Numbered from the stretch's first letter, positions 43,733-63,913 are shown. The stretch is DNA of 64,000 nt from Escherichia coli (GCF_001677475.2 NZ_CP015229.1); one strand, 5' to 3'. Program-made: numbers and translations. Notes: a model not told the origin generated them from the sequence alone.

Positions 43733-43781
43733 GGTGAATCCTCTCGTTGATTCTAAAAGTTTTGCAGACGCTGCTTGCGTC

Positions 43782-44801: not shown

Positions 44802-45028
44802 AGATCTCCTGCAAGGTTTTCCCTGAGCAAATTTGCCAGACAGAGTAATCCAGCAAATCGTCCGGGGAAACCTTACCTGTCGCAAACTGCGACTGATTGG
44901 TTAATTGTCGAACATTTAATCGACTGAAACGCTTCAGCTAGGATAAGCGAAACGTGGAATAAAAGGAATGATTGTCCAGTCAAAGAAGACAATTATCTGA
45001 CTTACGTCACGTTTTCAGCCCCGCCCCT

Positions 45029-45044
45029 GTGGAATTTATTCCAC
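45029..45044. promoter_or_regulatory. candidate operator: inverted repeat GTGGAAT-TT-ATTCCAC, with an extra GTGGAAT half-site at 44954..44960
   Basis: Perfect 7-2-7 inverted repeat in the divergent epd / PPC-ECF operon spacer; no binding factor identified. Confidence 0.3.
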
Positions 45045-45172
45045 TTTGCAGAATCACGAATAAGCGTAGCAAAATCTTTTCGTTGTGCCGTCACAAACCC
45101 TGACTTATATCAGAATATGACTGATGCAGCGTCGATATTATCCGCAATACGTCCGAGTTTCGGAGTACTCCA

Positions 45173-45604
45173 ATGATGACATTGCCCTACCCATATTCTT
45201 CCTCCGCACGCTTTTACTCGCTGCGCCTGCTCCCCGGGCAGGAAGTTCTCTCCCAATTGCGCGCCTTCACGCAGCAACAACAACTCCACGCCGCGTGGAT
45301 TGCAGGTTGTACCGGCAGTCTGACTGACGTCGCCTTACGCTATGCCGGACAAGAAAACACGGCCCTACTAAGCGGTAAGTTCGAAGTCATCGCATTGAAC
45401 GGCACGCTGGAACAGAGTGGTGAACATCTTCATCTCTGCGTTTCCGATCCACACGGCACGATGCTTGGCGGTCATATGATGCCCGGCTGTACCGTGCGGA
45501 CCACGCTTGAACTGGTGATCGGCTGCCTTGAGGAACTGGCGTTTAGCCGCCAGTCTTGCGCGCTTTCTGGTTACGACGAGTTGCATATTTCCCCCGTTAA
45601 ATAA
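45173..45604 (+). CDS. PPC/DUF296-like domain protein, 143 aa (first gene of the island operon)
   Basis: ORF 45173..45604; GGAG 9 nt upstream; domain assigned from memory of the family (AAWIxGCxGSL, HLHLCVSDPHG, GGH..PGCTV). Confidence 0.7.
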   Translation: MMTLPYPYSSSARFYSLRLLPGQEVLSQLRAFTQQQQLHAAWIAGCTGSLTDVALRYAGQENTALLSGKFEVIALNGTLEQSGEHLHLCVSDPHGTMLGGHMMPGCTVRTTLELVIGCLEELAFSRQSCALSGYDELHISPVK

Positions 45605-45626
45605 CTACTTTCAGAGAGGTTTTCTT

Positions 45627-46205
45627 ATGGCGCGTCGCCACTTTTCCAGTCAGGCGTTGGTGTTGATCGTTATATCTATCGCCATCAATATGATCGGCGG
45701 GCAACTGGCCAGCATGGTCAAATTACCTATATTTCTCGACTCCATCGGCACACTTATTAGCGCGGTACTGCTTGGTCCGGTGATCGGGATGCTGACCGGC
45801 TTACTGACCAATTTACTCTGGGGATTGCTAACCGACCCGATCGCCGCCGCATTTGCGCCCGTCGCGATGGTCATCGGCCTGGTCGCCGGTTGGCTGGCGC
45901 GAGCGGGTTGGTTCCGCACCCTGCCAAAAGTTGTTGTCAGCGGCGTGATTATTACGCTTGTGGTAACGGTCGTCGCTGTACCGCTGCGTACTGCGCTGTT
46001 CGGCGGTGTCACCGGTAGCGGAGCCGATTTGTTCGTTGCCTGGATGCACTCAATGGGGCAAAACCTGGTGGAGTCGGTGGCGATTACGGTGATAGGCGCG
46101 AACCTGGTCGATAAAGTTCTCACAGCGGTGATTGTCTGGCTTTTACTGCGTCAGCTGCCGATTCGCACCACGCGCCATTTTCCGGCAATGGCAGCCGTGC
46201 GCTAA
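45627..46205 (+). CDS. ECF-transporter substrate-specific (S) component-like membrane protein, 192 aa
   Basis: 3' part of ORF 45528..46205; start at MARRHFSSQ (ATG 45627) with GAGAGG upstream; about 6 hydrophobic helices. Confidence 0.65.
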   Translation: MARRHFSSQALVLIVISIAINMIGGQLASMVKLPIFLDSIGTLISAVLLGPVIGMLTGLLTNLLWGLLTDPIAAAFAPVAMVIGLVAGWLARAGWFRTLPKVVVSGVIITLVVTVVAVPLRTALFGGVTGSGADLFVAWMHSMGQNLVESVAITVIGANLVDKVLTAVIVWLLLRQLPIRTTRHFPAMAAVR

Positions 46206-46913
46206 ATGCATCCGTTTACCTCATTAACGCTGTGGGCGCTGGCAGCCTGCACCACGCTAATCCTGCCCGCGCAGACCATTTTGCCGGTCTATAGCGCGGC
46301 GACCTTTCTCTGCCTTATTGCGTTAAAGTCCACGCGGCGGCGAGCAAAATATGTCGTCTGGCTGATGTTCTCGCTGGGGGCTGGACTGTGGCTGGTACAC
46401 GGTGGCTGGCTGACAGAATGGCTAAGCGGCACGCCACGCTCGCCAGAACGGTGGGCGCATGCTATTACGCTCTGGTTGCGGATTCTGGCGATTGTTTCAA
46501 CCTCGCAGTTGTGGATGCAATTCGTCCCCGTGCAACGTTTTATCCGCGCTTTGTTTGCTTCTCGCCTGCCGCCAGGCGTCGCTTATCTGTTTGCCGGGCC
46601 GTTATTGGTCGTTGAGCAGTTAAAACGGCAATTAGCGATTATTCATGAAGCGCAGCGTGCCCGCGGCGTGCCTCTGGATGAGGGCTGGTATCAACGTTTA
46701 CATGCGATGCCCGCGTTAATTATTCCGCTAACACACAATGCGCTAAACGATCTTGCTGTCCGTGGTGCGGCGCTGGATATGCGGGCATTTCGGATCCACA
46801 GCCGACGAACAACGTTGTGGGCACCAGCCGATAGCCCCCTACAACGCGTAGCGCGTTACACCATGATCTTGCTGATGCTGGCAGAATTCGGAGCGTGGAT
46901 ATGGTTACGTTAG
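46206..46913 (+). CDS. ECF-transporter transmembrane (T) component, CbiQ/EcfT family, 235 aa
   Basis: ORF 46206..46913; start abuts the previous stop (TAAATG); C-terminal coupling-helix motifs QRARG and AVRGAA. Confidence 0.75.
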   Translation: MHPFTSLTLWALAACTTLILPAQTILPVYSAATFLCLIALKSTRRRAKYVVWLMFSLGAGLWLVHGGWLTEWLSGTPRSPERWAHAITLWLRILAIVSTSQLWMQFVPVQRFIRALFASRLPPGVAYLFAGPLLVVEQLKRQLAIIHEAQRARGVPLDEGWYQRLHAMPALIIPLTHNALNDLAVRGAALDMRAFRIHSRRTTLWAPADSPLQRVARYTMILLMLAEFGAWIWLR

Positions 46914-47578
46914 AACAGTTTCGCTATTGCCCGACAAACTCAACGCATCCTCCGTTCTGTTATGACTTTCACTATGTCAAACCGGGGATAGTCGCCATCT
47001 TTGGTGACAACGGCAGTGGCAAAAGTACGCTGGCGCAACTGATGGCGGGCTGGTATCCAGACTTTCTACCAGGAGAGATAACCGGCACGGGGACACTTCT
47101 CGGTACGCCCATTGGGCATCTCCCGCTTAATGAACAATCCGCCACCATCCAGCTCGTCCAGCAATCGCCCTATTTGCAGCTCTCCGGCTGTACCTTTAGC
47201 GTGGAAGAAGAAGTTGCCTTTGGGCCAGAAAATCTGTGTCTTGCTGAAAAAGAGATTATGGCGAGGATTGATGCCGCCCTGACTCTGAGCGAGTGCCAGC
47301 CGTTGCGCCATCGACACCCGGCAACACTCTCCGGTGGAGAGACACAGCGCGTGGTCATCGCCTGCGCTATCGCGATGCAGCCAAAACTATTAATTCTTGA
47401 TGAAGCCTTTAGCCGCCTGACGCCGCAGGCCAGCGAAATGCTGTTGCAGCGCTTACAACACTGGGCGTTTGAACGTGGTTCGCTGATTATTCTTTTTGAA
47501 CGTCATCGCACACCTTTCCTGAACTACTGCCAGCAAGCGTGGCAACTGCAAAACGGAGCGCTCCAGCCACTATGTTAA
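46895..47578 (+). CDS. ABC ATPase (EcfA-like), 227 aa
   Basis: ORF 46895..47578; Walker A GDNGSGKST, signature LSGGETQR, Walker B LLILDEA; overlaps the T gene by 19 nt. Confidence 0.85.
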   Translation: MDMVTLEQFRYCPTNSTHPPFCYDFHYVKPGIVAIFGDNGSGKSTLAQLMAGWYPDFLPGEITGTGTLLGTPIGHLPLNEQSATIQLVQQSPYLQLSGCTFSVEEEVAFGPENLCLAEKEIMARIDAALTLSECQPLRHRHPATLSGGETQRVVIACAIAMQPKLLILDEAFSRLTPQASEMLLQRLQHWAFERGSLIILFERHRTPFLNYCQQAWQLQNGALQPLC

Positions 47579-48249
47579 CGTTAAATCAGGTAACTTATCG
47601 CTGGCCTGGCGCGGCAACGGATTGTCTTTGCGACATTTCTCTGCAACTCAAACAAGGCGAATGGCTGGCGCTGACCGGCGACAATGGCGCAGGGAAATCG
47701 ACGCTGTTACGAGTAATGGCAGGTCTTCTTACGCCCACAGCCGGTACAGTTATGCTGCAACAACAGACGATGAAAAACCTGAAAAACCGCCAGCGCGCGG
47801 CAAAGATTGGCGTACTGTTTCAGGAAGCGGAAAACCAGCTTTTTCACAGCACCGTCGCTGACGAGATCGCATTTGGTTTGAAACTGCAAAAATGCCCGGC
47901 GGATGAAATCACTCAACGTACCCATGCTGCCCTGCAATGCTGTCAGTTAGCAGACACTGCCAGCGCGCACCCGTTGGATCTGCATAGTGCGCAGCGACGG
48001 ATGGTCGCCGTCGCCTGCCTGGAAGCACTCTCTCCGCCACTATTGCTGCTGGACGAGCCGAGTCGGGATTTTGACGAAAATTGGTTGAGCGTGTTTGAAA
48101 GCTGGCTGGAGAAGTGCCGCCAGCGAGGCTCGAGCGTCGTAGCAATCAGTCATGACGCCGCATTTACCCGGCGTCATTTCTCTCGTGTGGTGCGACTGGA
48201 AGATGGTGTAATCAGGAACGTTAATCCACCAGACGATATTCACCCGTAG
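47572..48249 (+). CDS. ABC ATPase (EcfA'-like) with a degenerate signature motif, 225 aa
   Basis: 3' part of ORF 47539..48249; start at MLTLNQVTY (ATG 47572, ATGTTAA overlap with the upstream stop); Walker A GDNGAGKST, Walker B LLLLDEP, H-loop ISHD; signature position reads LHSAQR. Confidence 0.8.
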   Translation: MLTLNQVTYRWPGAATDCLCDISLQLKQGEWLALTGDNGAGKSTLLRVMAGLLTPTAGTVMLQQQTMKNLKNRQRAAKIGVLFQEAENQLFHSTVADEIAFGLKLQKCPADEITQRTHAALQCCQLADTASAHPLDLHSAQRRMVAVACLEALSPPLLLLDEPSRDFDENWLSVFESWLEKCRQRGSSVVAISHDAAFTRRHFSRVVRLEDGVIRNVNPPDDIHP

Positions 48250-48934
48250 CGGTCATCATTAAAGTCAAATTTGCAGGCAGACTCTCTTCCAGCACCCGGC
48301 GAACATTCGGCCCGTCGGTACGGTCATAAAAAGCTTCTGCGTCTGCCAGTGATAACCCTCCCGCCAGCTTGCGCCCCACCAGTCGTTCCCGCAACGCAGT
48401 AGCTGGCGCATTGATAAAGATCGAGAAATCACAAAATTGCGCAAGCTGGCACCACTTCTCGTCGTCCAGCAACAACCAGTTTCCTTCGACGATGACGAGT
48501 GGTGCGGTAACGTGCAACGCATCTTCAACAGGATCATGCTTTTGTCGATCATACTGCGGCCACGCACAATCCCCTTCCACTACCTGGCGCAGGTTTTCCG
48601 CCAGTTTCGCTACATCGAATGTCTCTGGTGCGCCTTTGAAGGGGCGCAATTGATGCGCATCCAGCCAGCTATTGTAATGGTGAAAACCATCCATCGGGAG
48701 TGTCTGAATAGCGGGTAGTTCCGGGTCTTGTTGCGCGAGATATTCCCAGAAGGTGGTTAGGGTAGATTTACCCGTCCCCGGCGGAGCGCAAAGAAAAACC
48801 ACCGTACGCCGCTGCGGATTTACCGTCTGTAAGGCCGCCAGCATACGCAGTAGCGTTTTATGAACATTCTCAATTTCATCATCAGAGTACTGCGCCTGTA
48901 CCTTTAGTCCATTCACCGTCAGTTCGATTTTCAC
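48221..48934 (-). CDS. yggC: P-loop nucleoside/pantothenate kinase-like protein YggC, 237 aa
   Basis: ORF 48221..48934; P-loop GTGKST; 3' end overlaps the convergent EcfA' gene by 29 nt. Confidence 0.85.
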   Translation of the reverse strand: MKIELTVNGLKVQAQYSDDEIENVHKTLLRMLAALQTVNPQRRTVVFLCAPPGTGKSTLTTFWEYLAQQDPELPAIQTLPMDGFHHYNSWLDAHQLRPFKGAPETFDVAKLAENLRQVVEGDCAWPQYDRQKHDPVEDALHVTAPLVIVEGNWLLLDDEKWCQLAQFCDFSIFINAPATALRERLVGRKLAGGLSLADAEAFYDRTDGPNVRRVLEESLPANLTLMMTATGEYRLVD

Positions 48935-49440
48935 GGCGTTAATTCCTTTAAGGTTGTCGTTACTGCCAGCGTCAGCGCCGTTTTGACCATCCCGCTAAAA
49001 CGCGCCTCTGACCAGACGGCGAAATCGGCGAACTTCATCGCTTTCAACGCGTCATAGAGCGTCGCATTGCGGATTATGCTATTGACGTTGCTGATAAAAT
49101 CCCAGGTCATGTCATCGGCAAATCCGGGCATTTCATCCTGTTCGTTCAGGTAATGCCAGAACTGGGAAAAATGCGTGATATCGGCGTACAGCCATTTATC
49201 CATTTTCCCCAGCGCATAAATCAAACGCAGTGCAACATCAATATCGTCAAGCGGGCCGCTTTGGGCGAGTAACGGCTTCACTGCATATTCGACGATCTCT
49301 TCATCATTATCGACAAACAGCGACGGCAGAAACTGGCGTATCCCCTGGAGCAAAATAGAATGCGCAGTTTTCATAAATGAAAATAAATTGTCCTGTGCCT
49401 CCAGTTGCTCAAGCACATCATCTTCTGTCAGCGTCGCCAT
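48931..49440 (-). CDS. yggD: MtlR-like putative transcriptional regulator YggD, 169 aa
   Basis: ORF 48931..49440; 4-nt overlap with yggC. Confidence 0.85.
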   Translation of the reverse strand: MATLTEDDVLEQLEAQDNLFSFMKTAHSILLQGIRQFLPSLFVDNDEEIVEYAVKPLLAQSGPLDDIDVALRLIYALGKMDKWLYADITHFSQFWHYLNEQDEMPGFADDMTWDFISNVNSIIRNATLYDALKAMKFADFAVWSEARFSGMVKTALTLAVTTTLKELTP

Positions 49441-49461
49441 TGGTCTTCCGATAGATCACCA

Positions 49462-50427
49462 TCAATGCAGGGAGTCTATTATATTACACGTTTGGTCCGC
49501 GCCGCCGATCAGTAATGTCTGCGTCCGCACCCCATTCGCCGTCTGTTGGATTCCGTTCACCAACTCGCCGCCCGTCACGCCCGTAGCGCTAAAGAGGATA
49601 TCGTTCCCCCTCACCAGTTCATCGAGCGAGTACACACGGTTAACGTCAACGCCCATTTCCTTGCAACGCTTGCGCTCCTGCTCTGCAATCTGCCGATTTT
49701 CCGTGTAATCCCCTTTAGCCTGACAAAAGTCAATCAGCTCGGCCTGCATATCCCCGCCTAATGCTTTAACGGCACAGGCAGAAATCACGCCTTCTGGCGC
49801 ACCGCCGATGGTGTACATCACATCGTAAGGATTATCCTGCCAGCAGGTCAGCACGCTGGCGGCGACATCGCCATCCGGCAGGGCAAAAACCTTCACGCCC
49901 AGCTGTGTTGCTTCCTCAATTGCGGCACTCAGGCGCGGTTTATCCAGCGTAACCATACGCAGCTTGTCCAGCGGTTTGCCTAACGCTTTCGCCACGTTGC
50001 GCAAGTTGTCCGCCAGAGGCATGGACAGATCAATCGCGCCCGCCGCCAGCCGATTAACAACCAGTTTTTTCATATACATATCGGGCGCGTGTAACAGGCT
50101 ATCTCGAGGGGCGAAAGCCATGACCGCCAGCGCATTGCTCTGCCCCATCGCCACCATCCGCGTGCCTTCAATGGGATCGACCGCGATATCGACTTCTGGC
50201 CCATCGCCTTTGCCCACCTCTTCGCCAATCCACAGCATCGGCGCATGGTCAATTTCTCCCTCGCCGATAACCACTCGCCCACGAAAAGCGACGTCGTTCA
50301 ACGCCTGGCGCATCGCGGTGACCGCCAGGCCGTCGATTTTGTTTTTATCGCCACATCCGGTTTGCGGCCAGGCAGCCAACGCTGCCTGTTCCGTAACGCG
50401 AAATAATGGCCACGCCAGGGACATCAT
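49462..50427 (-). CDS. yggF: class II (GlpX-type) fructose-1,6-bisphosphatase YggF, 321 aa
   Basis: ORF 49462..50427. Confidence 0.85.
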   Translation of the reverse strand: MMSLAWPLFRVTEQAALAAWPQTGCGDKNKIDGLAVTAMRQALNDVAFRGRVVIGEGEIDHAPMLWIGEEVGKGDGPEVDIAVDPIEGTRMVAMGQSNALAVMAFAPRDSLLHAPDMYMKKLVVNRLAAGAIDLSMPLADNLRNVAKALGKPLDKLRMVTLDKPRLSAAIEEATQLGVKVFALPDGDVAASVLTCWQDNPYDVMYTIGGAPEGVISACAVKALGGDMQAELIDFCQAKGDYTENRQIAEQERKRCKEMGVDVNRVYSLDELVRGNDILFSATGVTGGELVNGIQQTANGVRTQTLLIGGADQTCNIIDSLH

Positions 50428-51701
50428 TGCGTGGTCTCCCCAATATCAACGCCAAATTGTGCCAGCAGATATTTCTCGGCCTGTTCATTCCAGATGCCGT
50501 GCGTTTCCTCAACCAACCGCGCCAGCTCTTTAAACAGCGGATCGGTTTTGCCTTTTTCGGCAAAATCGGCAATGGCAGTGAGCGGCATGGTCACGCCGTT
50601 ATAAATGAGTTTTTTACCGCCAGGGATATCCGGCAGATTGAGCACGGTTTCTGGCACCGCATCCAGGCCACCAATATGGGTCACCATAAACGACGGCTGT
50701 AACTGTCCTGTGGCGCTAAGGGCAATCGCCTCTTTCATGTCGTCCGTTGAACCGCCAGATGTACCGACGACGTGCGTGCTGTTGTAATGGACGTTGTAGA
50801 AATTAAACGGCACTTTGAAGTTTTTATCCGTCGGACCGGCAAAGAAGTTCAGACAGCCATCTTCCGCCAGTAATTCGTCAGCCATCTCAACGACAGCAGG
50901 CACCGCCGCATAAACAAAAATGTCATCGAACCCGGCATCTCCTGTAAGCGCCCGCAGCATCTGGACTGGATCGCTCATCCCTTTGGTATTCACATACACC
51001 AGCTCAATGCCTTTACTAGCCGCCAGTTCCACCGGCAGCAGCTTCTGTACCTGCGCCAGGCGTTTGTCGTCGATATCGACCACCACCACCCGCGACGGTT
51101 GTATGCCACCGTTAATGGCGTAATCGATAGCGCCAATGCCCATTGGACCAGCACAGGCCAGCAGTGCAATATTGCCGCCAGGTTTGACGCCCATGCGATG
51201 CTCATAAACATATTGCGTGGTGTGATAATTGGCATGATAAGCGCCAATAATGCAGCACATAGGCTCTGCCAGCGACGCAGCAGCAAAATAAGAGCCGTGA
51301 TACGGTAATACGCAGCCCAAATTAATGGCTACCTCTGGAATAATCATATAGGTGGCGTTACCGCCAAAATATTCGTAGCTGTAGCCCGCTGAATATCCGC
51401 TTGGTAACCCCATTGCCGGTTGCAATACAAAACGCTGGCCTTTTTTATATTTGCCGGTGAGATTTTTACCCACTTCAACAATAACCCCGGCACATTCATG
51501 TCCGGTAATGACCGGATGATTTTCTAAATCGTCGGATACGCGTTTATGTTCACTACCGAGTAACGCCGCTTTCCAGGTGGATAAACAGACGCTGTCAGAA
51601 ATTACACTCACTAACAGTTCATTATCGGTAATTTCTGGCAGTTCAAATTCGCGCAGACGGACATCCCGCTTGCCATAAATAGCAGCAACTTTGGTTTTCA
51701 T
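50424..51701 (-). CDS. yggP: Zn-dependent polyol/sugar-phosphate dehydrogenase (MDR family) YggP, 425 aa
   Basis: ORF 50424..51701; 4-nt overlap with yggF. Confidence 0.85.
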   Translation of the reverse strand: MKTKVAAIYGKRDVRLREFELPEITDNELLVSVISDSVCLSTWKAALLGSEHKRVSDDLENHPVITGHECAGVIVEVGKNLTGKYKKGQRFVLQPAMGLPSGYSAGYSYEYFGGNATYMIIPEVAINLGCVLPYHGSYFAAASLAEPMCCIIGAYHANYHTTQYVYEHRMGVKPGGNIALLACAGPMGIGAIDYAINGGIQPSRVVVVDIDDKRLAQVQKLLPVELAASKGIELVYVNTKGMSDPVQMLRALTGDAGFDDIFVYAAVPAVVEMADELLAEDGCLNFFAGPTDKNFKVPFNFYNVHYNSTHVVGTSGGSTDDMKEAIALSATGQLQPSFMVTHIGGLDAVPETVLNLPDIPGGKKLIYNGVTMPLTAIADFAEKGKTDPLFKELARLVEETHGIWNEQAEKYLLAQFGVDIGETTQ

Positions 51702-51715
51702 TTTTACCTCTGTAA

Positions 51716-53104
51716 TCAGTGTTTATGTTCGGCGGTTAATTGATTAAATAAAGTGTCGAGTTTTGGATCGCCAATATAGTTACTAATCAATATCAGTGGT
51801 TTATCCGTCACACGTTTCACGCGCCCTTCCAGACTGGCATGAGTAACGACGATATCCGCATCCGCAGGCACGTTTTCTATCGCGTAATGTTTTACTTCAA
51901 TTGCCAGCCCCGCTTTTTCCAGGCGTTTACGGAAGGTGGTCGCGCCCATCGCACTGGAGCCCATCCCCGCATCGCAAACAAAGGCGATACGCTTAACCTT
52001 GCTTAACGAGAATGCACCTTCTTGTTTCATCGCCTTAACCGCATTGGCTGACTGAGCAAACTCATATTCGCTCTCCGTTTCCACCGTTTTTTCCATCTTC
52101 AGTATCAGCGAAGTGATAGCAAAGGACACCAGGGTACCTACCGTAACACCGGCAATTGTCGCCAGGAATGAGCCTTTCGGCGTCAGCGCCAGGTAAGCAA
52201 AGATAGACCCCGGACTTGGGCCAGCCACCAGACCACCGTCCAGTAAGTTAAACATCCAGGTGCCAGACATACCGCCCGCAATCATGGCAATAATGGTCAG
52301 CGGCTTCATCAGCACATATGGGAAATACAGTTCGTGGATCCCACCGAGGAAGTGAATAATCATCGCCCCGGGCGCAGAACGTTTACTCATCCCTTTACCA
52401 AACAAGGTAAACGCCAGCAGCAGCCCCAGGCCCGGACCTGGGTTAGAGGCCACCATAAAGAAGATGGATTTACCGTTAACCGAAGCCTGTTGCATTCCCA
52501 GCGGATAATAGACGCCCTGATCGATCGCGTTATTGAGGAAAAGCACTTTCGCCGGTTCATTGATGACTGACAGCAGAGGCAGATAACCCGCATGTACCAG
52601 CGCCTCAATACACTCTTTGACGAAAGTATTGGCAATTAACACCGCCGGGCCGATCACTTCAAAACCCAGCAGACAAAGGAGCATCCCCGCGATACCTAAT
52701 GAGAAGTTATTGATAACCATCTCAAAACCGGCAGGTATGCGTTTTTCCAGTGCCTTATCGACATATTTTATGACCAGACCACCGAGCGGCCCCATAATCA
52801 TCGAACCAAGGAACATCGGGATCTCTGCGCCGACGATCACACCAATAGTACCTATTCCGCCCATGACCGCCCCGCGTTTACCGCCGACCAGATGACCACC
52901 GGTAGAACCAATCATCACGGGCAATAAATAGGTAATCATCGGGCCGACAATTTTGGCGAAATGTTCATTCGGCAGCCAACCGGTGGGAATAAATAACGCA
53001 GTTATAAAACCCCAGGCAATAAAAGCACCGATATTGGGAATGACCATTGCAGTCAAAAAGCCCCCAAAAGCCTGGACCCTTGCACGAGCAGACTTGTTTT
53101 CCAT
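51716..53104 (-). CDS. cmtA: PTS mannitol-family EIICB component (cryptic), 462 aa
   Basis: ORF 51716..53104; polytopic N-terminal domain plus C-terminal EIIB with conserved Cys (AFVCDAGMGSS). Confidence 0.9.
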   Translation of the reverse strand: MENKSARARVQAFGGFLTAMVIPNIGAFIAWGFITALFIPTGWLPNEHFAKIVGPMITYLLPVMIGSTGGHLVGGKRGAVMGGIGTIGVIVGAEIPMFLGSMIMGPLGGLVIKYVDKALEKRIPAGFEMVINNFSLGIAGMLLCLLGFEVIGPAVLIANTFVKECIEALVHAGYLPLLSVINEPAKVLFLNNAIDQGVYYPLGMQQASVNGKSIFFMVASNPGPGLGLLLAFTLFGKGMSKRSAPGAMIIHFLGGIHELYFPYVLMKPLTIIAMIAGGMSGTWMFNLLDGGLVAGPSPGSIFAYLALTPKGSFLATIAGVTVGTLVSFAITSLILKMEKTVETESEYEFAQSANAVKAMKQEGAFSLSKVKRIAFVCDAGMGSSAMGATTFRKRLEKAGLAIEVKHYAIENVPADADIVVTHASLEGRVKRVTDKPLILISNYIGDPKLDTLFNQLTAEHKH

Positions 53105-53131
53105 AATATTATCCTGTAGAGGAGAGAGTCA

Positions 53132-53575
53132 TTATCCGCGGCTGATTATGTCCGCTAATTGTTTTTCTGATGATGCTGTTAAGAGTTGTTCGAGTATTTC
53201 TTCTTCGCTCAGTAATTCACTTAACGCCTGAATAGCGCCAATGTGCGAATCGGCATCGGCAGCAGAAAGCCCGATGAGTAATTTAATCGGTTCGTCATTC
53301 CCCGGGAAATAAACGCCTTGTTTAAGTAACGTTAAAGACATCCCGGTTTTAAGCGCCCCACATTCCGGTCGAGCATGAGGCATTGCCACGCCTGGTGCGA
53401 GAATATAATAAGGACCATTGCTGATGGTGGAGTCTTTAATAGACTGAATGTAATTCTCGCTGATATAGTTTTTATCCAGCAATGATGCCATCGAGAAATC
53501 GATAGCTTCCTGCCAATCTTTTGCTGAATGTATAACTGAGATTGATGATTCTGGAAAATAATCAATAAGCCGCAT
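53132..53575 (-). CDS. cmtB: PTS mannitol-family EIIA component (cryptic), 147 aa
   Basis: ORF 53132..53575; EIIA-Mtl active-site His region (VAMPHAR). Confidence 0.9.
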   Translation of the reverse strand: MRLIDYFPESSISVIHSAKDWQEAIDFSMASLLDKNYISENYIQSIKDSTISNGPYYILAPGVAMPHARPECGALKTGMSLTLLKQGVYFPGNDEPIKLLIGLSAADADSHIGAIQALSELLSEEEILEQLLTASSEKQLADIISRG

Positions 53576-53951
53576 AAATTATCCTTATTTTATTTTTAGG
53601 GTACCGTCCGGCGGTAAAAATAAAATACTCGTGCGGTTTAATGAAAGCAATTGGGTACGCGAGAAGAAAAACCCCATGAACAAAAATAATAAAACTTTAA
53701 ATAACAACAACATGAAATTGATATTTTTAAAGTCAACTTTGTATTTGTTATGTTTATCACAAAATCAACATTTTGATTGTTGTTGTATTTGTGATGCATA
53801 TCGCCATTTATTTATTGAATGTCCGAAAACATACTTTTTTAATGCAATGTTTTTTCGCTATACCCCTTTATAGATTCTGAATTCTCACCTGTCGGCTATT
53901 TTCTCCTCACCTCATGTGACATATTCCCCACTTTACTCAAGGAAGATTCAT

Positions 53952-54860
53952 ATGAAAGCACCTGTTTCATTAACCTCATTTCGCCCACAAAAATCTATTG
54001 CTATCGCCATTGGCGTGCTTGCCGTGGTTGTGCTGCCATTTCTCTCGTATTACACCGTTAATGAAGGTGAACGCGGCATTTTGCTGCGCTACGGAAAAAT
54101 CGTAAAAGTTGCCGAGCCGGGTCTGGGTTTTAAGATCCCTTTTATGGAAAGCGTGGAGAAAATTTCCACGCGTAATCAGGCTGTGGTTTATCAGGGATTA
54201 CAGGCCTACAGCCGCGACCAGCAACCGGCACAAATGACAGTATCAGTCAGCTTCCACATTAAACCTTCAGAAGCTGGCGCAGTTTATACAACCTACAACA
54301 CCATTGAATCTTTAAAAGAGCGTCTGATCGTCCGCCAGCTGCCAACCCAACTGGAGAACGTTTTCGGGCAATATACAGCCATCAGCGCGGTACAGGATCG
54401 TACAAAACTGGTTCAGGATCTGCAAAATGCCATGCGTAAAGCCGTTGTTGGCCCGGTGGTGATTGATGGTGTTCAGATTGAAAATATTGATTTTTCTGAC
54501 GCTTATGAAAAATCGATTGAAGATCGAATGAAAGCAGAAGTCGCCATTGCCACACGTAAGCAAAATCTGGAAACAGAGAAAATCCAGGCGCAAATAGCGG
54601 TAACTCAGGCCCAGGCAGAGGCAGACAGTAAACTGGCGGCAGCCAAAGCAGAAGCGGAAACTATTCGCGTAAGAGGCGCGGCAGAGGCTTAAACTATTCG
54701 TTTAAAAAGTGCGGCTGAAGCAGAAGCGATCCGCCTGCGCGGTGAAGCTCTGCGGGATAATCCCGGACTTGTTGCCCTCACCACTGCTGAGCGTTGGGAC
54801 GGTAAGCTACCCGATACCATGATCCCCGGCAGTACAGTTCCGTTTATCTCTACTAAGTAA
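53952..54860 (+). pseudogene. SPFH/band-7 (prohibitin-like) membrane protein gene interrupted by an in-frame TAA at 54690..54692
   Basis: ORF 53916..54692 (start probably ATG 53952 with AAGGAAG upstream); N-terminal TM helix, SPFH-like core, AEA-rich tail; the same frame continues 54693..54860 (55 codons); the stop sits where the upstream repeat copy has GAA. Confidence 0.65.
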
Positions 54861-54885
54861 AAAAAGGGCCGATTTCGCGGCCCTT
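54859..54885 (-). terminator. tktA intrinsic terminator
   Basis: Stem GGGCCG/CGGCCC (54866-54883) followed on the minus strand by a 7-nt T-run (plus-strand A-run 54859-54865). Confidence 0.7.
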
Positions 54886-54905
54886 CTCACAAAGCATCTT
54901 ACCGA

Positions 54906-56897
54906 TTACAGCAGCGCTTTGGCTTTCGCAACAACGTTGTCAACGGTGAAGCCGAACTCTTCAAACAGCAGTTCTGCCGGAGCAGATTCACCGAAGGTGG
55001 TCATGCCGACGATAGCACCGTTCAGGCCAACATACTTGTACCAGTAGTCAGCAATGCCAGCTTCCACCGCAACGCGTGCAGTAACCGCTTTCGGCAGTAC
55101 GGATTCACGGTAAGCCGCATCCTGCTTGTCGAATGCGTCGGTAGACGGCATGGAAACCACGCGCGCTTTCACGCCTTCGGCAGTCAGTTTTTCGTAGGCA
55201 GCAACCGCCAGTTCAACTTCAGAACCGGTAGCGATGAAGATCAGTTCCGGCTGACCGGCACAGTCTTTCAGCACATAACCACCGCGCGCGATGTTTGCCA
55301 GCTGCTCTTCAGTACGTTCCTGCTGCGCCAGGTTCTGACGGGAGAGGATAAGCGCAGTCGGGCCGTCCTGACGCTCAACGCCGTATTTCCACGCGACCGC
55401 GGATTCAACCTGGTCACACGGACGCCATGTGGACATGTTCGGGGTCACGCGCAGAGAAGCGACCTGCTCTACCGGCTGGTGAGTCGGGCCATCTTCGCCC
55501 AGACCGATGGAGTCGTGGGTGTAAACCATCACCTGACGCTGTTTCATCAGCGCAGCCATACGTACGGCGTTACGTGCGTATTCCACGAACATCAGGAAGG
55601 TGGAGGTGTACGGCAGGAAGCCACCGTGCAGGGAGATACCGTTAGCAATCGCGGTCATACCGAACTCGCGAACACCGTAGTGGATGTAGTTACCCGCAGC
55701 ATCTTCGTTGATTGCTTTAGAACCAGACCACAGGGTCAGGTTAGACGGTGCCAGGTCAGCAGAGCCGCCGAGGAATTCCGGCAACAGCGGACCGAACGCT
55801 TCAATCGCATTCTGAGACGCTTTACGGCTGGCGATTTTCGCCGGATTAGCCTGCAGTTTAGCGATGAATTCTTTCGCTTTGGCGTCGAAGTCAGACGGCA
55901 TTTCGCCTTTCATACGGCGGGTAAATTCAGCGGCTTCCTGCGGATAAGCTTTCGCGTAAGCCGCGAATTTCTCGTTCCATGCGGATTCTTTCGCCTGGCC
56001 TGCTTCTTTCGCATCCCACTGAGCATAGATTTCAGACGGGATTTCGAACGGTGCATATTTCCAGCCCAGCTGTTCGCGGGTCAGGGCGATTTCAGCGTCG
56101 CCCAGCGGCGCACCGTGGGAGTCGTGCGTACCGGCTTTGTTCGGGGAACCGAAACCGATGATGGTTTTGCACATCAGCAGGGACGGTTTGTCAGTCACTG
56201 CGCGCGCTTCTTCTACTGCGCGTTTGATGGATGCCGCGTCATGACCGTCGATGCCGCGAATAACGTGCCAGCCGTAAGCTTCGAAACGCATTGCGGTGTC
56301 GTCGGTGAACCAGCCTTCAACGTGGCCATCGATAGAGATACCGTTGTCATCGTAGAACGCAATCAGTTTACCCAGCTTCAGCGTACCCGCCAGAGAGCAA
56401 ACTTCGTGGGAGATACCTTCCATCATGCAGCCGTCGCCCATGAAGGCGTAGGTGTAGTGGTCGACGATGTCGTGGCCCGGACGGTTAAACTGCGCCGCCA
56501 GCGTTTTTTCTGCAATCGCCATACCGACTGCGTTGGCAATACCCTGACCCAGCGGACCAGTAGTGGTTTCCACACCAGCGGTGTAACCCACTTCCGGGTG
56601 ACCCGGAGTTTTAGAGTGCAGCTGACGGAAGTTTTTCAGTTCTTCCATCGGCAGATCGTAACCGGTGAGGTGCAGCAGGCTGTAGATCAGCATGGAGCCG
56701 TGGCCGTTGGACAGCACGAAGCGGTCACGGTCAGCCCAGGACGGATTCTGCGGGTTGTGTTTCAGGAAATCACGCCACAGGACTTCGGCAATGTCAGCCA
56801 TACCCATAGGGGCACCCGGGTGACCGGATTTGGCTTTCTGTACTGCGTCCATGCTCAGCGCACGAATAGCATTGGCAAGCTCTTTACGTGAGGACAT
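54906..56897 (-). CDS. tktA: transketolase 1, 663 aa
   Basis: ORF 54906..56927; start at [12 protein letters not shown] (ATG 56897..56895); TPP-binding motifs. Confidence 0.95.
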
Positions 56898-57174
56898 TTT
56901 GACTCCAGATCGGATGATGAAGGGCACGCCCTTAACGACTTGACGACAGCGCGTTTTGGGCTACGCCAGAAAATTTGCCAACAATTTACCGCAAGCCGCG
57001 CGTCATGTACATGGAACATCCTTTTGCCGCTTCAGAAATCTCTGGATCATGCTCGCATGTTGCGCAATCTGCTCGCCCGTCCGCTGCGCTTTTCCTTATA
57101 CTGAGACTGAGCGTCGATTCACCTGCAAACGGCGCATTTTTAGAATAATCCTGACCTTGTGCGGAAGAGAAAAC

Positions 57175-57933
57175 ATGAAAATTCGCGCCTTATTGGTAGC
57201 AATGAGCGTGGCAACGGTACTGACCGGTTGCCAGAATATGGACTCCAACGGACTGCTCTCATCAGGAGCGGAAGCTTTTCAGGCTTACAGTTTGAGTGAT
57301 GCGCAGGTGAAAACCCTGAGCGATCAGGCATGTCAGGAGATGGACAGCAAGGCGACGATTGCGCCAGCCAATAGCGAATACGCTAAACGTCTGACAACTA
57401 TTGCCAATGCGCTAGGCAACAATATCAACGGTCAGCCGGTGAATTACAAAGTGTATATGGCGAAGGATGTGAACGCCTTTGCAATGGCTAACGGCTGTAT
57501 CCGCGTCTATAGCGGGCTGATGGATATGATGACGGATAACGAAGTCGAAGCGGTGATCGGTCACGAGATGGGGCACGTGGCGTTAGGCCATGTGAAAAAA
57601 GGGATGCAGGTGGCGCTTGGTACAAATGCCGTGCGAGTAGCTGCGGCCTCTGCGGGCGGGATTGTCGGCAGTTTATCGCAATCACAACTTGGTGATCTGG
57701 GCGAGAAATTAGTCAATTCGCAATTCTCCCAGCGCCAGGAAGCAGAAGCCGATGATTACTCTTATGATCTTCTGCGCCAACGCGGCATCAGCCCGGCAGG
57801 TCTTGCCACCAGCTTTGAAAAACTGGCGAAACTGGAAGAAGGCCGCCAAAGCTCAATGTTTGACGACCACCCAGCATCCGCCGAACGCGCCCAGCATATT
57901 CGCGATCGTATGAGCGCGGATGGGGTTAAGTGA
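57175..57933 (+). CDS. loiP: outer-membrane M48-family metalloprotease LoiP, 252 aa
   Basis: 3' part of ORF 56956..57933; start at MKIRALLVAM (ATG 57175); lipobox LTGC; HEMGH zinc motif. Confidence 0.9.
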   Translation: MKIRALLVAMSVATVLTGCQNMDSNGLLSSGAEAFQAYSLSDAQVKTLSDQACQEMDSKATIAPANSEYAKRLTTIANALGNNINGQPVNYKVYMAKDVNAFAMANGCIRVYSGLMDMMTDNEVEAVIGHEMGHVALGHVKKGMQVALGTNAVRVAAASAGGIVGSLSQSQLGDLGEKLVNSQFSQRQEAEADDYSYDLLRQRGISPAGLATSFEKLAKLEEGRQSSMFDDHPASAERAQHIRDRMSADGVK

Positions 57934-57940
57934 TTTCATA

Positions 57941-57972
57941 TTTCTCCGACAGGAATGTCGGAGAAATTTTCA
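57941..57972 (+). terminator. loiP intrinsic terminator
   Basis: TTTCTCCGACA-GGAAT-GTCGGAGAAA followed by TTTTCATTC. Confidence 0.75.
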
Positions 57973-58018
57973 TTCAGGATCGGTCACAGTCATTAAACAA
58001 GCTCAATCATTGGGGGCA

Positions 58019-59581
58019 TCAATTCGCTTCGTAGATTGCTTTATCCGGTGTATCCGATTGCACCTCTACTACATCGGCAGTGCTTACGCCACAAGCCCAG
58101 GCAAAAGCCGTCTCTGTTCCTTCAGGTAATGGAGTATCCCAGGGTAAAGTACGCCACGGACTCCCCTGCTCTTTTAATAAAGATGTAATGGCTTTCTTAA
58201 AAAGAATATGGGTAATCAGGTGCCGTTTATCCGTTGCTTTCCAGTACCAACGGGCCAGCAAAAAATGTCCGGCCAATTCGCGCCAGCTTCTGTAATGTTG
58301 CTGTACGCGTCTGGCTGCCAGCATCGAAAAATCGACCATTTCACGCTGGGTAATGTATCCCACTTGCGCCCCGCTATTACATAGCATGACAAAGCGCACC
58401 ATATCCCAGGCACAAAAATCTATGTCGCATATTTTACGTCGATTTTTTCTGACCATCTGTAGCTGCCACAAACGCTCTTTCGCTTCGCTACTTAATTTCG
58501 CGTTCTGAGCTAATTGCTGAGCGAACGCGCTATATTCAGCATCCGGCATTTCGCTATCGTTTTTGATCTGTTCTTCATAAACTGAACGATGCCCTGCTAC
58601 AAACAAAGCTAAGAGTTGCTCAAGTAACGAATCCCGATCAAAGACGCCCCACATGTCAGCAAGGGACTCAACTTCACTTTTGCAATCATTCTCTGCTTCC
58701 ACGGAATCATCATTAACGACTCGTCGCGCCCAGTGATTGTTACCCGCAATGGCATAAGGCGCGCCGACTGCCATTGCCCAACGTTCGGCAGCAGGAATTT
58801 TTTGAATTGAGGGATCTTTACAGGATGCTTTGAAAAGGCGATGTCCGGCGAACACCAGGCCATAACCAATCCACAAAACAGCCACCAAGGCGAGAATAAG
58901 TATTATCGCTACCAGATAAAGGGCATATTTGCCTATTGTCAGTAAGACATCCAGCCAGGAAGAGTCTGGCTCCGTAACTGTTTGCTCCACCGATGTCAAA
59001 GGGGACTTACTGACCCGCTCTGGCGCGGTCCTCGTCAACAGAGGGAAATCCCTATGTTGCTTGAATGAGCGTTTTTTAAGCAAATCTATTTTTTTCTGCA
59101 CCTCATCAGTAACCCGACCGTTTTTTTCAAACTCATGTAACGATGCAAAATCAATCGCCGCAATCTTCCATTTACCATCCCCTTCACGGATTAATTCCAT
59201 TGGAATATCAATATAAGATTGGTGACCAAAAAAAGCACCAATCTGCGCCTTGTCGCCTTCGACGAAGGTCGCTAAAGGATCGCTATAACTGGGGAAACGT
59301 CGTTTACACGTTTTGGGTGACTCTTGCCAGTATTTCAGTACAGGCTCCATTAAAGCAGGCGTAAATACTTGCTGCATTTCCACAAGGCGATCGTGCGAAT
59401 CTGTGCTGGTGACAAACTCAGGGCCACATAATGCGCGATAACTCTTTTTGACGACAGAGGAAATAGCTTCTTTGTCTTGTTGCAGCTGTGCGGCAATTTT
59501 CTGTTTTTCTGCTCTATCGCAGCCAGTTGATAAAAGAAATAACAAACAAAGAAGAGGCTTCCAGGGAAGAGTGCGTTCCAT
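58019..59581 (-). CDS. hypothetical membrane protein, 520 aa: N-terminal signal/lipobox-like segment, one internal TM helix, large C-terminal domain (possibly DUF1266-like)
   Basis: ORF 58019..59581; N-terminus MERTLPWKPLLCLLFLLSTGC; internal hydrophobic segment YALYLVAIILILALVAVLWIGYGLVFAG; domain assignment is from memory and tentative. Confidence 0.7.
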   Translation of the reverse strand: MERTLPWKPLLCLLFLLSTGCDRAEKQKIAAQLQQDKEAISSVVKKSYRALCGPEFVTSTDSHDRLVEMQQVFTPALMEPVLKYWQESPKTCKRRFPSYSDPLATFVEGDKAQIGAFFGHQSYIDIPMELIREGDGKWKIAAIDFASLHEFEKNGRVTDEVQKKIDLLKKRSFKQHRDFPLLTRTAPERVSKSPLTSVEQTVTEPDSSWLDVLLTIGKYALYLVAIILILALVAVLWIGYGLVFAGHRLFKASCKDPSIQKIPAAERWAMAVGAPYAIAGNNHWARRVVNDDSVEAENDCKSEVESLADMWGVFDRDSLLEQLLALFVAGHRSVYEEQIKNDSEMPDAEYSAFAQQLAQNAKLSSEAKERLWQLQMVRKNRRKICDIDFCAWDMVRFVMLCNSGAQVGYITQREMVDFSMLAARRVQQHYRSWRELAGHFLLARWYWKATDKRHLITHILFKKAITSLLKEQGSPWRTLPWDTPLPEGTETAFAWACGVSTADVVEVQSDTPDKAIYEAN

Positions 59582-59664
59582 CTATTTATTCCATTAAAAA
59601 CACGGTAATAACAATCCATTAAAAAACAGCAGTCAGGGTAAAGATGACTTAATTAACAGGATAG

Positions 59665-59701
59665 GTTTTAAATGATAAGTCCCTTGTGCCAGACAAGGGA
59701 C
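59665..59701 (-). terminator. hairpin downstream of speB
   Basis: Perfect 8-bp stem GTCCCTTG/CAAGGGAC followed on the minus strand by a T-rich tract. Confidence 0.5.
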
Positions 59702-59730
59702 TGTGCAAAAAATTCGACCAGGCAGGTTAC

Positions 59731-60651
59731 TTACTCGCCCTTTTTCGCCGCCTGAATATACAGCATCTCCAGCGCCAGCGTTGCCGCTGCCAGAGCAGTG
59801 ATTTCCGACTGATCGTATGCCGGAGCCACTTCCACTACGTCCATCCCAACGATGTTGAGATCTTTCAGGCCGCGTACCAGTTTAATGGCGCGATCGGAGG
59901 TCAGGCCGCCAATTACCGGCGTACCGGTGCCTGGTGCAAAAGCAGGATCCAGGCAGTCGATATCAAAGGTCAGGTAAACCGGCATATCACCCACAATCTG
60001 TTTCACCTGGGCGATAACATCATCCACGCTGCGATCGTTCACCTGGCAGGCGTCCAGCACGGTAAAGCCGTTGTCTTTATCAAACTCGGTACGAATACCA
60101 ATCTGCACGGAATGATTCGGGTCAATCAGACCTTCTTTTGGCGCGGTATAGAACATCGTGCCGTGGTCAAATTCACAACCGTTCGCATAGGTATCGGTGT
60201 GAGCGTCAAAGTGTACCAGCGCCATTTTGCCGAAATGTTTTGCATGGGCGCGCAGCAGCGGCAGCGTAACAAAGTGGTCACCACCGAAGGAGAGCATACG
60301 CTTACCGGCAGCCAGCAGTTTCTCTGCGTGCGCCTGCAATTTCTCGCTCATCTCACGGGCATCGCCGAAGGCATATACCAGATCGCCGCAGTCCACGACG
60401 TTCAGGCGCTCGCGCATGTCGAAATTCCACGGGAAACGGTTGTGTTCCCAGGCCAGGTTAGTTGATACCTGACGGATAGCCGCCGGACCGTGACGACCAC
60501 CCGCACGACCAGAAGTGGCCATATCGAACGGTACGCCGGTAATCACCCAGTCAGCATCGCTGTCATACGGCTGGAAGTTCATCGGCAGGCGTAAAAAACC
60601 AAAGGCGTTGGAAACCAGTGAGTTATCGTATTGATGCCCTAAGGTGCTCAT
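59731..60651 (-). CDS. speB: agmatinase (agmatine ureohydrolase), 306 aa
   Basis: ORF 59731..60651; arginase-fold metal-binding motifs ([14 protein letters not shown]). Confidence 0.95.
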
Positions 60652-60678
60652 GGATGGACTCCTATTACAAAGTCGATA

Positions 60679-60721
60679 TAAAAAAACCCTTCCGCGTCGT
60701 TAGGCCCGACGAGGAAGGGTT
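60679..60721 (-). terminator. strong intrinsic terminator after the lipoprotein gene, about 30 nt upstream of the speB start codon
   Basis: Long stem AACCCTTCC...GGAAGGGTT with an inner CGTCG/CGACG pairing, followed on the minus strand by a 7-nt T-run. Confidence 0.7.
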
Positions 60722-60786
60722 GGATTTGCGAAACACAAGTTTGTGCTAATTATCGCCTTAAATGGGCGAGGCATCAAGCGAGGTTG

Positions 60787-61518
60787 CTATTTCCGACACG
60801 GTGGCGGCGCATAGCCATTGTTATCTGCTGGAAAAGCTTGTCCAGAGCACGGTGGCAGCGCGTTTTGCGCCGGGCCTTGTAATTCAAAGGCGGCAAAGCC
60901 GATTACCCCGGTATTACGCACATCGCCTTGCGCCGAATTGGCGGCGTAGGAATCAGCAACGTTGGCGAACTGAAAAGCCGCTTCGGTATGTTTATCTTTG
61001 CGGAATCCTTTAATCGCTAACGAATCTCCGGCATTCACAATATAACCGTTGTTATTCAGCGAACCTTGCTTGCCGTTCAGCACATCCAGGCCATCAACCG
61101 TAGCAACGATCTCGTAATTGGTGTTCCGGCTGTAGTTACGGACATATAATTGATAATTCATCCCCACTCTGGCATGAACAATATATCGCGGTTCATTATT
61201 TGATGAATCATAAACTCGCGTAATAGGTAGAGAATTAAAATTCGCATCACGAATAGCATATTCCAGTTCGTTAATACGAATGCTATAAACACGGTCGTAG
61301 CCGGAAGGAATATTTGTCGAATAATTAATAACGATCATCTCTGCCGGATCGCGCCAGGCGCGTTCAGCAGATACGCCCTGAACCGTTGAGTGCACATCTC
61401 CACCCCAGGCAGTGCCGACATTGCCCGATGCACTGCTATTATACTGCGCATTACTTGAGCAACCAGCCAACAACACGACTAATGCCACCAACGCGCTACG
61501 TACTTTCCATTTTTTCAT
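60787..61518 (-). CDS. hypothetical lipoprotein, 243 aa
   Basis: ORF 60787..61518; signal peptide with classic lipobox (VVLLAG-C, Cys20); N/S/Y-rich mature part; no domain recognised. Confidence 0.7.
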   Translation of the reverse strand: MKKWKVRSALVALVVLLAGCSSNAQYNSSASGNVGTAWGGDVHSTVQGVSAERAWRDPAEMIVINYSTNIPSGYDRVYSIRINELEYAIRDANFNSLPITRVYDSSNNEPRYIVHARVGMNYQLYVRNYSRNTNYEIVATVDGLDVLNGKQGSLNNNGYIVNAGDSLAIKGFRKDKHTEAAFQFANVADSYAANSAQGDVRNTGVIGFAAFELQGPAQNALPPCSGQAFPADNNGYAPPPCRK

Positions 61519-61600
61519 TACCGTTCCCTCTATTTAATTAATACAGCGATTGTAGGGGGGTTATTTAATAATAAAAGCAGCCAAATTATTTTTAAGAATA

Positions 61601-61644
61601 TATAAAAAGAAAGCGGGCCGATTTACGTAAATAAATCGACCCGC
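61601..61644 (-). terminator. speA intrinsic terminator
   Basis: GCGGGCCGATTTA ... TAAATCGACCCGC, 13-bp stem with one mismatch, followed on the minus strand by TTTCTTTTTATA. Confidence 0.7.
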
Positions 61645-61661
61645 CAGCGGAATAATCTTAA

Positions 61662-63638: not shown

Positions 63639-63646
63639 AGCGAACC

Positions 63647-63778
63647 TCAAATTATTTTATTAAGTGTAAAACAGTTAACGACTATCGCAGCCTGGAACTG
63701 CGATAACAACCCATAAGCACATGGATTTTCCAGCAGTGAATGCTGACGCTCCAACTGCGCAACCGGTTTCTTTTTCAT
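63647..63778 (-). CDS. yqgB: small protein YqgB, 43 aa ([43 protein letters not shown])
   Basis: Minus-strand ATG 63778..63776 to TGA 63649..63647, ending 8 nt before the speA start; matches my recollection of K-12 YqgB; too short for the ORF track. Confidence 0.65.
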
Positions 63779-63913
63779 AACATTATTAAGCACATAACCG
63801 AACGTAAGTGTGACAGTTCGGCGAAACCACGAGAAAACTCTTGTTTTTACAAGAGCGCCCTTGTTCAGTCCTCAGTAACTGTAACCAGCTCTTGAATCCT
63901 GAGAAGCGCCGAG

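Follow-up and report, generated by a model that had tools for sequence, protein, structure and literature searches.

We examined a 64,000-nucleotide stretch of the Escherichia coli chromosome NZ_CP015229.1 (GCF_001677475.2), hereafter the window, in which positions 44,802 to 61,661 hold four blocks of genes (B1 to B4) that K-12 lacks, at the junctions epd/yggC, cmtB/tktA, loiP/speB and speB/speA. It is highly probable that these blocks are old presence/absence or multi-state polymorphisms that segregate in E. coli and its relatives and are exchanged by recombination. An original prediction, made from the sequence alone, had described them as strain-specific insertions at a local hotspot of gene gain and loss. 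We found instead that B1 and B4 appear to be ancestral, with K-12 as the derived state, that B2 was gained long ago within Escherichia alone, and that B3 is the only one of the four that looks like a plausible recent acquisition.

The window was aligned by blastn with K-12 MG1655 (3,072,000-3,088,500), and the alignment was read together with a listing of open reading frames (ORFs). From this examination, positions 43110-64000 were found to be collinear with K-12 from pgk/epd to yqgG, with four exceptions (Table 1). The K-12 annotation places epd, yggC, fumE, yggF, yggP, cmtA, cmtB, tktA, loiP, speB and speA next to one another, which matches the gene order given in the prediction. The presence of extra blocks at the four named junctions was borne out by both alignment and annotation, and no alignment placing their genes at the same positions in K-12 was obtained, since K-12 lacks all four. 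B1 comprises five plus-strand genes, which encode a PPC protein and the S component, putative T component and two ABC ATPases (A1 and A2) of an energy-coupling factor (ECF) transporter. B2 holds an SPFH/Band-7 gene, B3 a gene for a membrane protein with a DUF1266 domain, and B4 a lipoprotein gene. GC content was 54.5% in B1, 44.5% in B2, 45.3% in B3 and 45.7% in B4, compared to 51.9% in the flanks. The first 45 kb of the window match K-12 gene for gene, with differences consisting of repeats shorter than 200 bp. Four random points on 64 kb would fit some 16.9-kb span with a probability of approximately 0.06 (calculated as n·w^(n-1) - (n-1)·w^n, w = 0.264), and the local clustering of the four blocks is suggestive, not compelling.

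Each block was searched against 5,426 complete E. coli genomes. B1 was present in 3,330 of these (61%), B2 in 1,830 (34%), B3 in 211 (3.9%) and B4 in 3,557 (66%), and strain KK19-02 carries all four blocks in the same order as the window, with annotation in RefSeq. These counts contradict the description of the blocks as strain-specific, although the gene content of the region does differ between lineages, as had been proposed. The closest match to the window among the same genomes reached 97.0% over the studied region and 98.4% over a 12-kb core stretch, and representatives of other Escherichia species were farther from it (88-97% identity). This divergence looks natural, because all of the genes checked are intact, the SPFH gene excepted. 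The window belongs to a lineage of the E. coli complex that has no member among these complete genomes.

A ranking of genomes for the complete 18.5-kb region was sampled at regular intervals, which gave 59 chromosomes, and their haplotypes were decoded from percent coverage and feature names. The combination of B1 and B4 was found in about 18 of the 59 and that of B1, B2 and B4 in about 16, with fewer chromosomes carrying B2 and B4 (three), all four blocks (two, ~3%) or B1 only (one). None of the blocks was present in 19 chromosomes (about 32%), which corresponds to the empty state of K-12. It was noted that the marginal block frequencies in this sample agree with the direct counts, and the haplotype counts point to a small set of haplotypes undergoing reshuffling. 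The empty-state chromosomes came from humans, opossum, cattle, chicken and sediment; a state that is common to approximately one third of genomes and to many hosts is therefore no laboratory artefact.

For the comparison with other species, core and block proteins were mapped in 80 loci from species-representative genomes (LoiP scan), each with flanks of ±10 kb. Across the Enterobacteriaceae, the epd-tktA interval occurs in four combinations, containing nothing, the ECF operon only, the yggC-cmt genes only, or both. In several Citrobacter, K. oxytoca, K. grimontii and Atlantibacter, B1 adjoins epd with amino-acid identities of 70-97%, and a PPC gene takes up this position in genera such as Citrobacter and Klebsiella. 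In S. enterica diarizonae and C. koseri the T, A1 and A2 genes lie at the yggC junction, the fetched locus ending before epd, and in E. whittamii and E. albertii the last gene of B1 lies at this same junction. A2 and yggC are convergent, and in the window their 3' ends share 29 bp; a tail-to-tail overlap of 17-23 bp is kept in Escherichia, Salmonella and Citrobacter. All five Escherichia representatives other than E. coli carry B4 between speB and speA, as do Intestinirhabdus, two Citrobacter, one Enterobacter and K. spallanzanii; it was placed nowhere else among the representatives, and its junction sequences are orthologous. B2 was restricted to Escherichia, where four of the five other species were positive, and in non-Escherichia genera the cmtB-tktA spacing resembles that of K-12. 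B3 was found in none of the 80 representatives. Because of this distribution in other species, B1 and B4 both appear to be ancestral to Escherichia, and B1 also to much of the Enterobacteriaceae.

The presence or absence of B1 is linked to the sequence of the yggC 3' end. Nucleotides 451-714 of yggC are only 57-67% identical between the window and K-12, compared to 93% for nucleotides 1-450, and the same gradient along the gene was seen with a sliding window of identity. Over nucleotides 451-714, the window and the B1-positive E. albertii are 93-96% identical, and the K-12 end has only one close relative, in the B1-less Escherichia representative SCPM-O-B-8794 (89-90%). The B1-less junction of K-12 also contains a hairpin (ttattccag...ctggaataa) that is common to B1-less Citrobacter and Raoultella and missing from B1-positive alleles. 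Because the B1-less allele possesses a terminator hairpin of its own and differs strongly in the 3' part of yggC, it would have arisen through allelic replacement and not by simple deletion. Strain RS571, which is negative for B1 and positive for B2 and B4, carries the K-12 junction at 98-100% identity, and this argues for a single origin of the B1-less allele followed by recombination with the other states. The K-12 yggC 3' end may be a foreign import or a very old allele kept within Escherichia. In Escherichia sp. E1V33 (locus L007, about 1425-2217), an in-situ deletion joins the start of the PPC gene (~30 codons) to the end of A2, and the ECF operon was thus lost there independently and in another way than in the K-12 allele.

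We propose that the modules pass between lineages as alleles, through homologous recombination in the conserved flanks (epd, yggC, tktA, loiP, speB and speA). Such an exchange is suggested by the divergence patterns of yggC and cmtB and by the lack of any mobility signature. B1 would then be an ancestral ECF importer operon, for which ~39% of E. coli including K-12 carry the alternative B1-less allele. B2 would be a membrane-scaffold gene of the SPFH/Band-7 type that was gained at the base of Escherichia and is probably decaying in the window, and B3 would be a rare single-gene cargo at the one site with multiple cargoes. B4 may represent a self-contained transcription unit, composed of a terminator, a promoter and the lipoprotein gene, that is missing from K-12-type haplotypes. 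Several points weigh against this proposal. The haplotype frequencies come from 59 genomes and from percent coverage, the direction of change at B4 and B2 follows from parsimony with one genome per species, and flank recombination is read from divergence gradients. In addition, a search of the 80 representatives gave no donor for the 3' end of K-12 yggC, the best non-Escherichia match being at most 68%, and all of the functions are family-level predictions.

A different account starts from an ancestor with all of the blocks and explains K-12 by four simple in-situ deletions, either in its lineage or in the laboratory strain itself. The outgroup placement of B1 and B4 agrees with such losses, the PPC-A2 fusion remnant of E1V33 makes in-situ deletion a known event at this locus, and the boundaries of B4 are clean, running from the speA stop codon to a conserved element. 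As an explanation of all four junctions, however, it is decidedly unlikely. The empty state is not peculiar to K-12, and no deletion in the B1-positive allele could yield the B1-less hairpin and the adjoining ~260 bp of yggC; the absence of block-sequence remnants from the K-12 junctions likewise speaks against this account. B2 is missing from every non-Escherichia genus, with K-12-like spacing there, which makes its absence the older state, and B3 is too rare to be ancestral. For B4 alone, simple deletion is a possible course of events.

No integrase or transposase families were found among the block products by annotation, NCBIfam or phage-family searches, no tRNA lies at 40-64 kb of the window, and the junctions contain no direct or inverted repeats or target-site duplications longer than 7 bp, only chance 7-mers. 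The region thus lacks the integrase or transposase, the tRNA and the direct repeats that mark integrative islands and prophage remnants, and the earlier statement that none of the blocks carries mobility genes stands. No Rfam match at E <= 1 was obtained over positions 43000-64000, the epd-PPC spacer included, and the idea of a riboswitch or small RNA in the added intergenic sequence was dropped. It is very improbable that the blocks are what is left of integrative mobile elements (genomic islands, prophages or transposons) after decay of the mobility genes. The low GC of B2-B4, the similarity of the SPFH protein to phage family phrog_200 and to jumbo phage proteins of Enterobacterales, and an IS3 element at loiP/speB in one strain would fit such remnants. 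However, phage structural genes were also missing, no plasmid copies of B3 were found, the blocks consist of one to five genes with ordinary promoters and terminators of their own, and B1 combines native-like GC with deep synteny. Another reading is that a K-12-like backbone recently received four strain-specific insertions, independent of one another, at a local hotspot. The excess over K-12, the rarity of B3 and a GC of ~45% in B2, B3 and B4 against 52% in the flanks (typical of acquired DNA) would favor this scheme. It is already refuted for B1, B2 and B4 by prevalence and by outgroup synteny (across genera for B1, across Escherichia species for B4), and the co-occurrence of the four blocks in the same order in KK19-02 and ~3% of the sampled genomes leaves this scheme scarcely credible as a whole.

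Table 1. Features of the window, with coordinates counted from its first nucleotide.
Feature	Coordinates	Strand	Remarks
Collinear stretch 1	43110-45022		99.1% identity to K-12 MG1655 (blastn)
Block B1	45023-48289	+	epd/yggC junction; 3,267 bp against 132 bp in K-12
PPC (DUF296) domain protein (B1)	45173-45604	+	143 aa; Pfam PF03479, E 3e-26
ECF S (substrate-capture) component (B1)	45627-46205	+	192 aa; Pfam PF12822, E 1.8e-8
ECF T (transmembrane coupling) component (B1)	46206-46913	+	235 aa; Pfam CbiQ PF02361, E 3.6e-4, weak
ABC ATPase A1 (B1)	46901-47578	+	225 aa; ECF_ATPase_1 E 1.9e-34, ECF_ATPase_2 E 1.4e-30
ABC ATPase A2 (B1)	47572-48249	+	225 aa; ECF_ATPase_2 E 6e-44, ECF_ATPase_1 E 1e-42 (NCBIfam)
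Allele-dependent yggC 3' ~260 bp	48221-48484	-	linked to presence/absence of B1
Collinear stretch 2	48290-53653		96.0% identity to K-12 MG1655 (blastn)
Block B2	53654-54904	+	cmtB/tktA junction; 1,251 bp against 234 bp in K-12, unalignable there
SPFH/Band-7 ('prohibitin family') gene (B2)	53952-54860	+	Pfam PF01145, E 5.6e-32, on the intact orthologue
Collinear stretch 3	54905-57931		97.8% identity to K-12 MG1655 (blastn)
Block B3	57932-59729	-	loiP/speB junction; 1,798 bp replacing 206 bp of K-12 REP-type repeats
Terminator-like hairpin (B3)	57940-57967	+	12-bp stem, then T run; directly after the loiP stop
Membrane protein with DUF1266 (B3)	58019-59581	-	520 aa; lipobox, NTF2-like domain, one transmembrane helix, C-terminal DUF1266
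Hairpin (B3)	59678-59702	-	10-bp stem, weak T tail; after the speB stop, upstream of the DUF1266 gene
Collinear stretch 4	59730-60728		96.2% identity to K-12 MG1655 (blastn)
Block B4	60729-61661	-	speB/speA junction; 933 bp against 60 bp in K-12
speB-proximal promoter-like element	60749-60777	-	TTGATG-17-GATAAT; adjoins the downstream end of B4
Predicted outer-membrane lipoprotein (B4)	60787-61518	-	243 aa; family outside Pfam
Promoter-like site upstream of the lipoprotein gene	61568-61595	-	TTAAAA-16-TATTAT; consensus match only
Strong terminator-like hairpin (B4)	61612-61645	-	15-bp stem, tail TTCTTTTTAT
Collinear stretch 5	61662-64000		97.2% identity to K-12 MG1655 (blastn)

At the family level, B1 is predicted to encode a dedicated ECF-type ABC importer. 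Its transporter genes overlap or abut on one strand, and in dedicated (group I) ECF importers the S, T and two ATPase genes are likewise found in one operon. The S component had its best NCBIfam match with the CD3073 family (E 2.3e-40), at 138 bits and thus below the cut-off of 180, and A1 and A2 both match the ECF ATPase models best in NCBIfam, the scores of A1 falling below the equivalog cut-offs. The T component is named as such in RefSeq and had no NCBIfam match. B1 departs from the dedicated importers in an S component under the CD3073 equivalog cut-off and a T component that is only weakly CbiQ-like, and also in the PPC/DUF296 gene at the head of its operon. The product of this gene, named 'PPC domain-containing DNA-binding protein' in RefSeq, is clearly related over its whole length to the Salmonella PPC structures 2HX0 and 2NMU (E 6e-69, residues 2-140). 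Both are structural genomics entries without an attached function, and 'DNA-binding' is an annotation label only. No informative literature was found on the ECF operon (STM3071-3074, HtsT).

The B2 protein contains an N-terminal hydrophobic segment (residues 10-37), and in its intact orthologue the Band_7 domain covers residues 35-210. Translation of the gene in the window revealed an in-frame TAA at codon 247 of 302 (54690-54692). This codon is GAA in E. coli strains KK19-02 and 98232, in which the gene is intact. The truncated product keeps the Band_7 domain and loses the C-terminal 56 residues, and the nonsense codon is probably a lineage-specific pseudogenization or truncation of a decaying gene. 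Matches to phages were also noted for the SPFH protein, both to phrog_200 (E 4e-63) and to jumbo phage proteins (51-53% identity over ~90% of the length). The phages measure ~355 kb, their hosts are Cronobacter, Yersinia, Erwinia and Serratia, and the records include GAP32, fHe-Yen9-04, pEa_SNUABM_19 and others. Over cmtB and the cmtB-tktA spacer without B2 (locus L004, 6858-7658, in K-12), K-12 and Escherichia sp. E1V33 share 98-100% identity on a background of 92-96%, which may reflect transfer of the allele between species or strong constraint.

The product of B3 may be a lipoprotein of the inner membrane, its NTF2-like domain facing the periplasm and its DUF1266 domain the cytoplasm. Its lipobox reads LSTGC, with Cys21 and with Asp at +2. 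The N-terminal domain is confidently predicted to adopt an NTF2-like fold, which is non-specific, and a single hydrophobic helix (residues 209-247) separates it from the DUF1266 domain (PF06889; E 3.5e-29, residues 306-481, full model length). More than 1,200 representative homologues were found, nearly all of the best 150 matching the C-terminal part only, and the full-length protein had only 11 homologue clusters in a large database. The homologues are solitary genes in varied contexts, and no informative literature was found on DUF1266. A partial copy beside an integrase/IS66 in strain IH5 was discarded as an assembly artefact. That chromosome, listed as complete, ends (locus L085; NZ_CP168949.1 5128797-5141443) in a succession of unrelated gene pieces of ~600 bp each, one of them from the DUF1266 gene.

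We found that the loiP/speB junction holds different and unrelated contents across genomes, and it is the only one of the four sites to do so. Some genomes, including K-12, possess only repetitive extragenic palindromic (REP) repeats of 47-206 bp, the DUF1266 gene is present in the 211 E. coli genomes counted above, 563 of the 5,426 (10%) carry a 7.6-kb D-glucosaminate phosphotransferase system (PTS) operon (dga), and one strain has the IS3 element; in other genera, porin, ankyrin or PTS/GH38 genes were encountered. The dga operon comprises dagR, PTS IIA-IID, dgaE and dagF (locus L093, 12930-20540, in E. coli IAL7255; locus L006, 10757-18392), and Escherichia sp. MOD1-EC7003 also holds it at loiP/speB. 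At least 99% identity to the query copy from strain IAL7255 was observed in 561 of the 563 copies, which suggests that the operon spread recently. Known from Salmonella and some E. coli, the dga/dag PTS operon shares its junction with B3. It is catabolic, has a sigma-54 activator and shows no sequence relation to the DUF1266 gene, and is thus an alternative allele and not a homologue. The idea of a local hotspot accordingly holds for loiP/speB with its several cargoes, whereas epd/yggC, cmtB/tktA and speB/speA have two states each within E. coli. Outside E. coli, speB/speA in two other genera contains either a gene for a HipA-like protein and a small ORF (from translations) or a transposase/integrase-like ORF, and epd/tktA in Kosakonia contains an unrelated 249-aa gene.

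All four blocks had been placed at operon boundaries, and B1, B2 and B3 do sit between transcription units with hairpins of their own. B4, however, lies between speA and speB, which are co-transcribed in K-12. It is bounded by the speA stop codon and by the conserved promoter-like element near speB. The terminator-like hairpin within it begins ~20 bp past the speA stop and is conserved in B4-positive Citrobacter and Klebsiella, and the speB-proximal element ('ATTATCGCC...TTCAAG') is conserved in every genus, with B4 present or absent. From this arrangement, B4-positive strains may insulate speB from speA read-through. A further strong hairpin followed by T7 was noted on the minus strand (AACCCTTCCTCGTCGGGCCTAACGACGCGGAAGGGTTTTTTT; window 60652-60728, K-12 locus L004 11799-11875), ~27 nt upstream of the speB start. 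This leader hairpin is kept across genera with or without B4 and looks like a terminator or attenuator.

The B4 lipobox reads LLAGC, with Ser at +2 of Cys20, and this cysteine is invariant in 30 B4 homologues. Both the B3 and B4 products thus carry lipoprotein signals, from which lipidation and sorting are predicted. We found no Pfam family, no sequence relative in the PDB and no structural neighbor for the B4 lipoprotein, although it has 289 sequence homologues and 368 AFDB50 clusters across Proteobacteria, annotated only as lipoproteins. An attempt to assign its function from gene neighborhood was dropped, as the context varies (his operon, Rhs/sucAB and others). In a Comamonadaceae-like metagenome contig (locus L086, 5001-5813), a homologue lies between hisD and hisC of the his operon, with a 115-aa ORF after it, and the B4 family thus occurs for a second time within a core biosynthetic operon. 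A defense-island reading of the region was likewise rejected, PADLOC having returned generic P-loop matches for the two ABC ATPases, none for the B2, B3 and B4 proteins, and no specific match among the eight block products.

A joint proposal, that the B4 terminator uncouples speB from speA in two thirds of E. coli and that K-12 yggC is chimeric in its last ~87 codons, appears rather doubtful to us. If it were true, the agmatine-to-putrescine step would be regulated differently from the K-12 model in two thirds of E. coli, and the B4 lipoprotein could have a polyamine- or cell-envelope-linked role. The K-12 yggC end and its ECF-less junction would in that case form an allele that predates the genus or entered it from elsewhere.

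Two additional features were noted in the window. A patch of speA at 62262-62411 is 87% identical to K-12, with 95-100% identity around it, and may be a short recombination tract. An imperfect palindrome of the enterobacterial repetitive intergenic consensus/intergenic repeat unit (ERIC/IRU) type lies between rpiA and yqfE (30324-30520), where K-12 has no copy. It resembles the K-12 copy between fbaA and pgk and contains an internal insert of ~70 bp (30368-30437).

These results indicate that K-12 is in the minority or derived at two of the four junctions, and that being extra relative to K-12 carries no information on insertion. For most E. coli, models of the speAB operon and yggC that are built on K-12 would not hold. 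An uncharacterized ECF importer and an outer-membrane lipoprotein family, both predicted, are near-core in E. coli and invisible in the model strain. The current understanding of genome dynamics is unchallenged and the practical consequences are modest. The seemingly chimeric yggC of K-12 with its ECF-less allele, and the lipoprotein family without a Pfam entry within speA-speB of most E. coli, are nevertheless worth recording.

Variation of this kind and the four gene sets can already be found in annotated public genomes and in the E. coli genome-dynamics literature. O-islands and K-islands are said to have been named by Perna and colleagues in 2001 from the comparison of O157:H7 with K-12. 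B1 and B4 occur in O157:H7 genomes and not in K-12, and they are thus ordinary small differences of the O-island type. In the comparison of Touchon et al. 2009 (PLoS Genet; PMC2617782), insertions and deletions of different E. coli genomes were found to share their core-gene junctions, for the most part with neither integrase nor tRNA, and spread through homologous recombination in the flanks was proposed; a hotspot was there a site averaging more than five non-core genes per genome. The sites examined here are similar to those hotspots in the shared core-gene pairs, the lack of tRNA and integrase, and the raised divergence of the flanks, but three of the four are small (1-5 genes) and two-state within E. 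coli.

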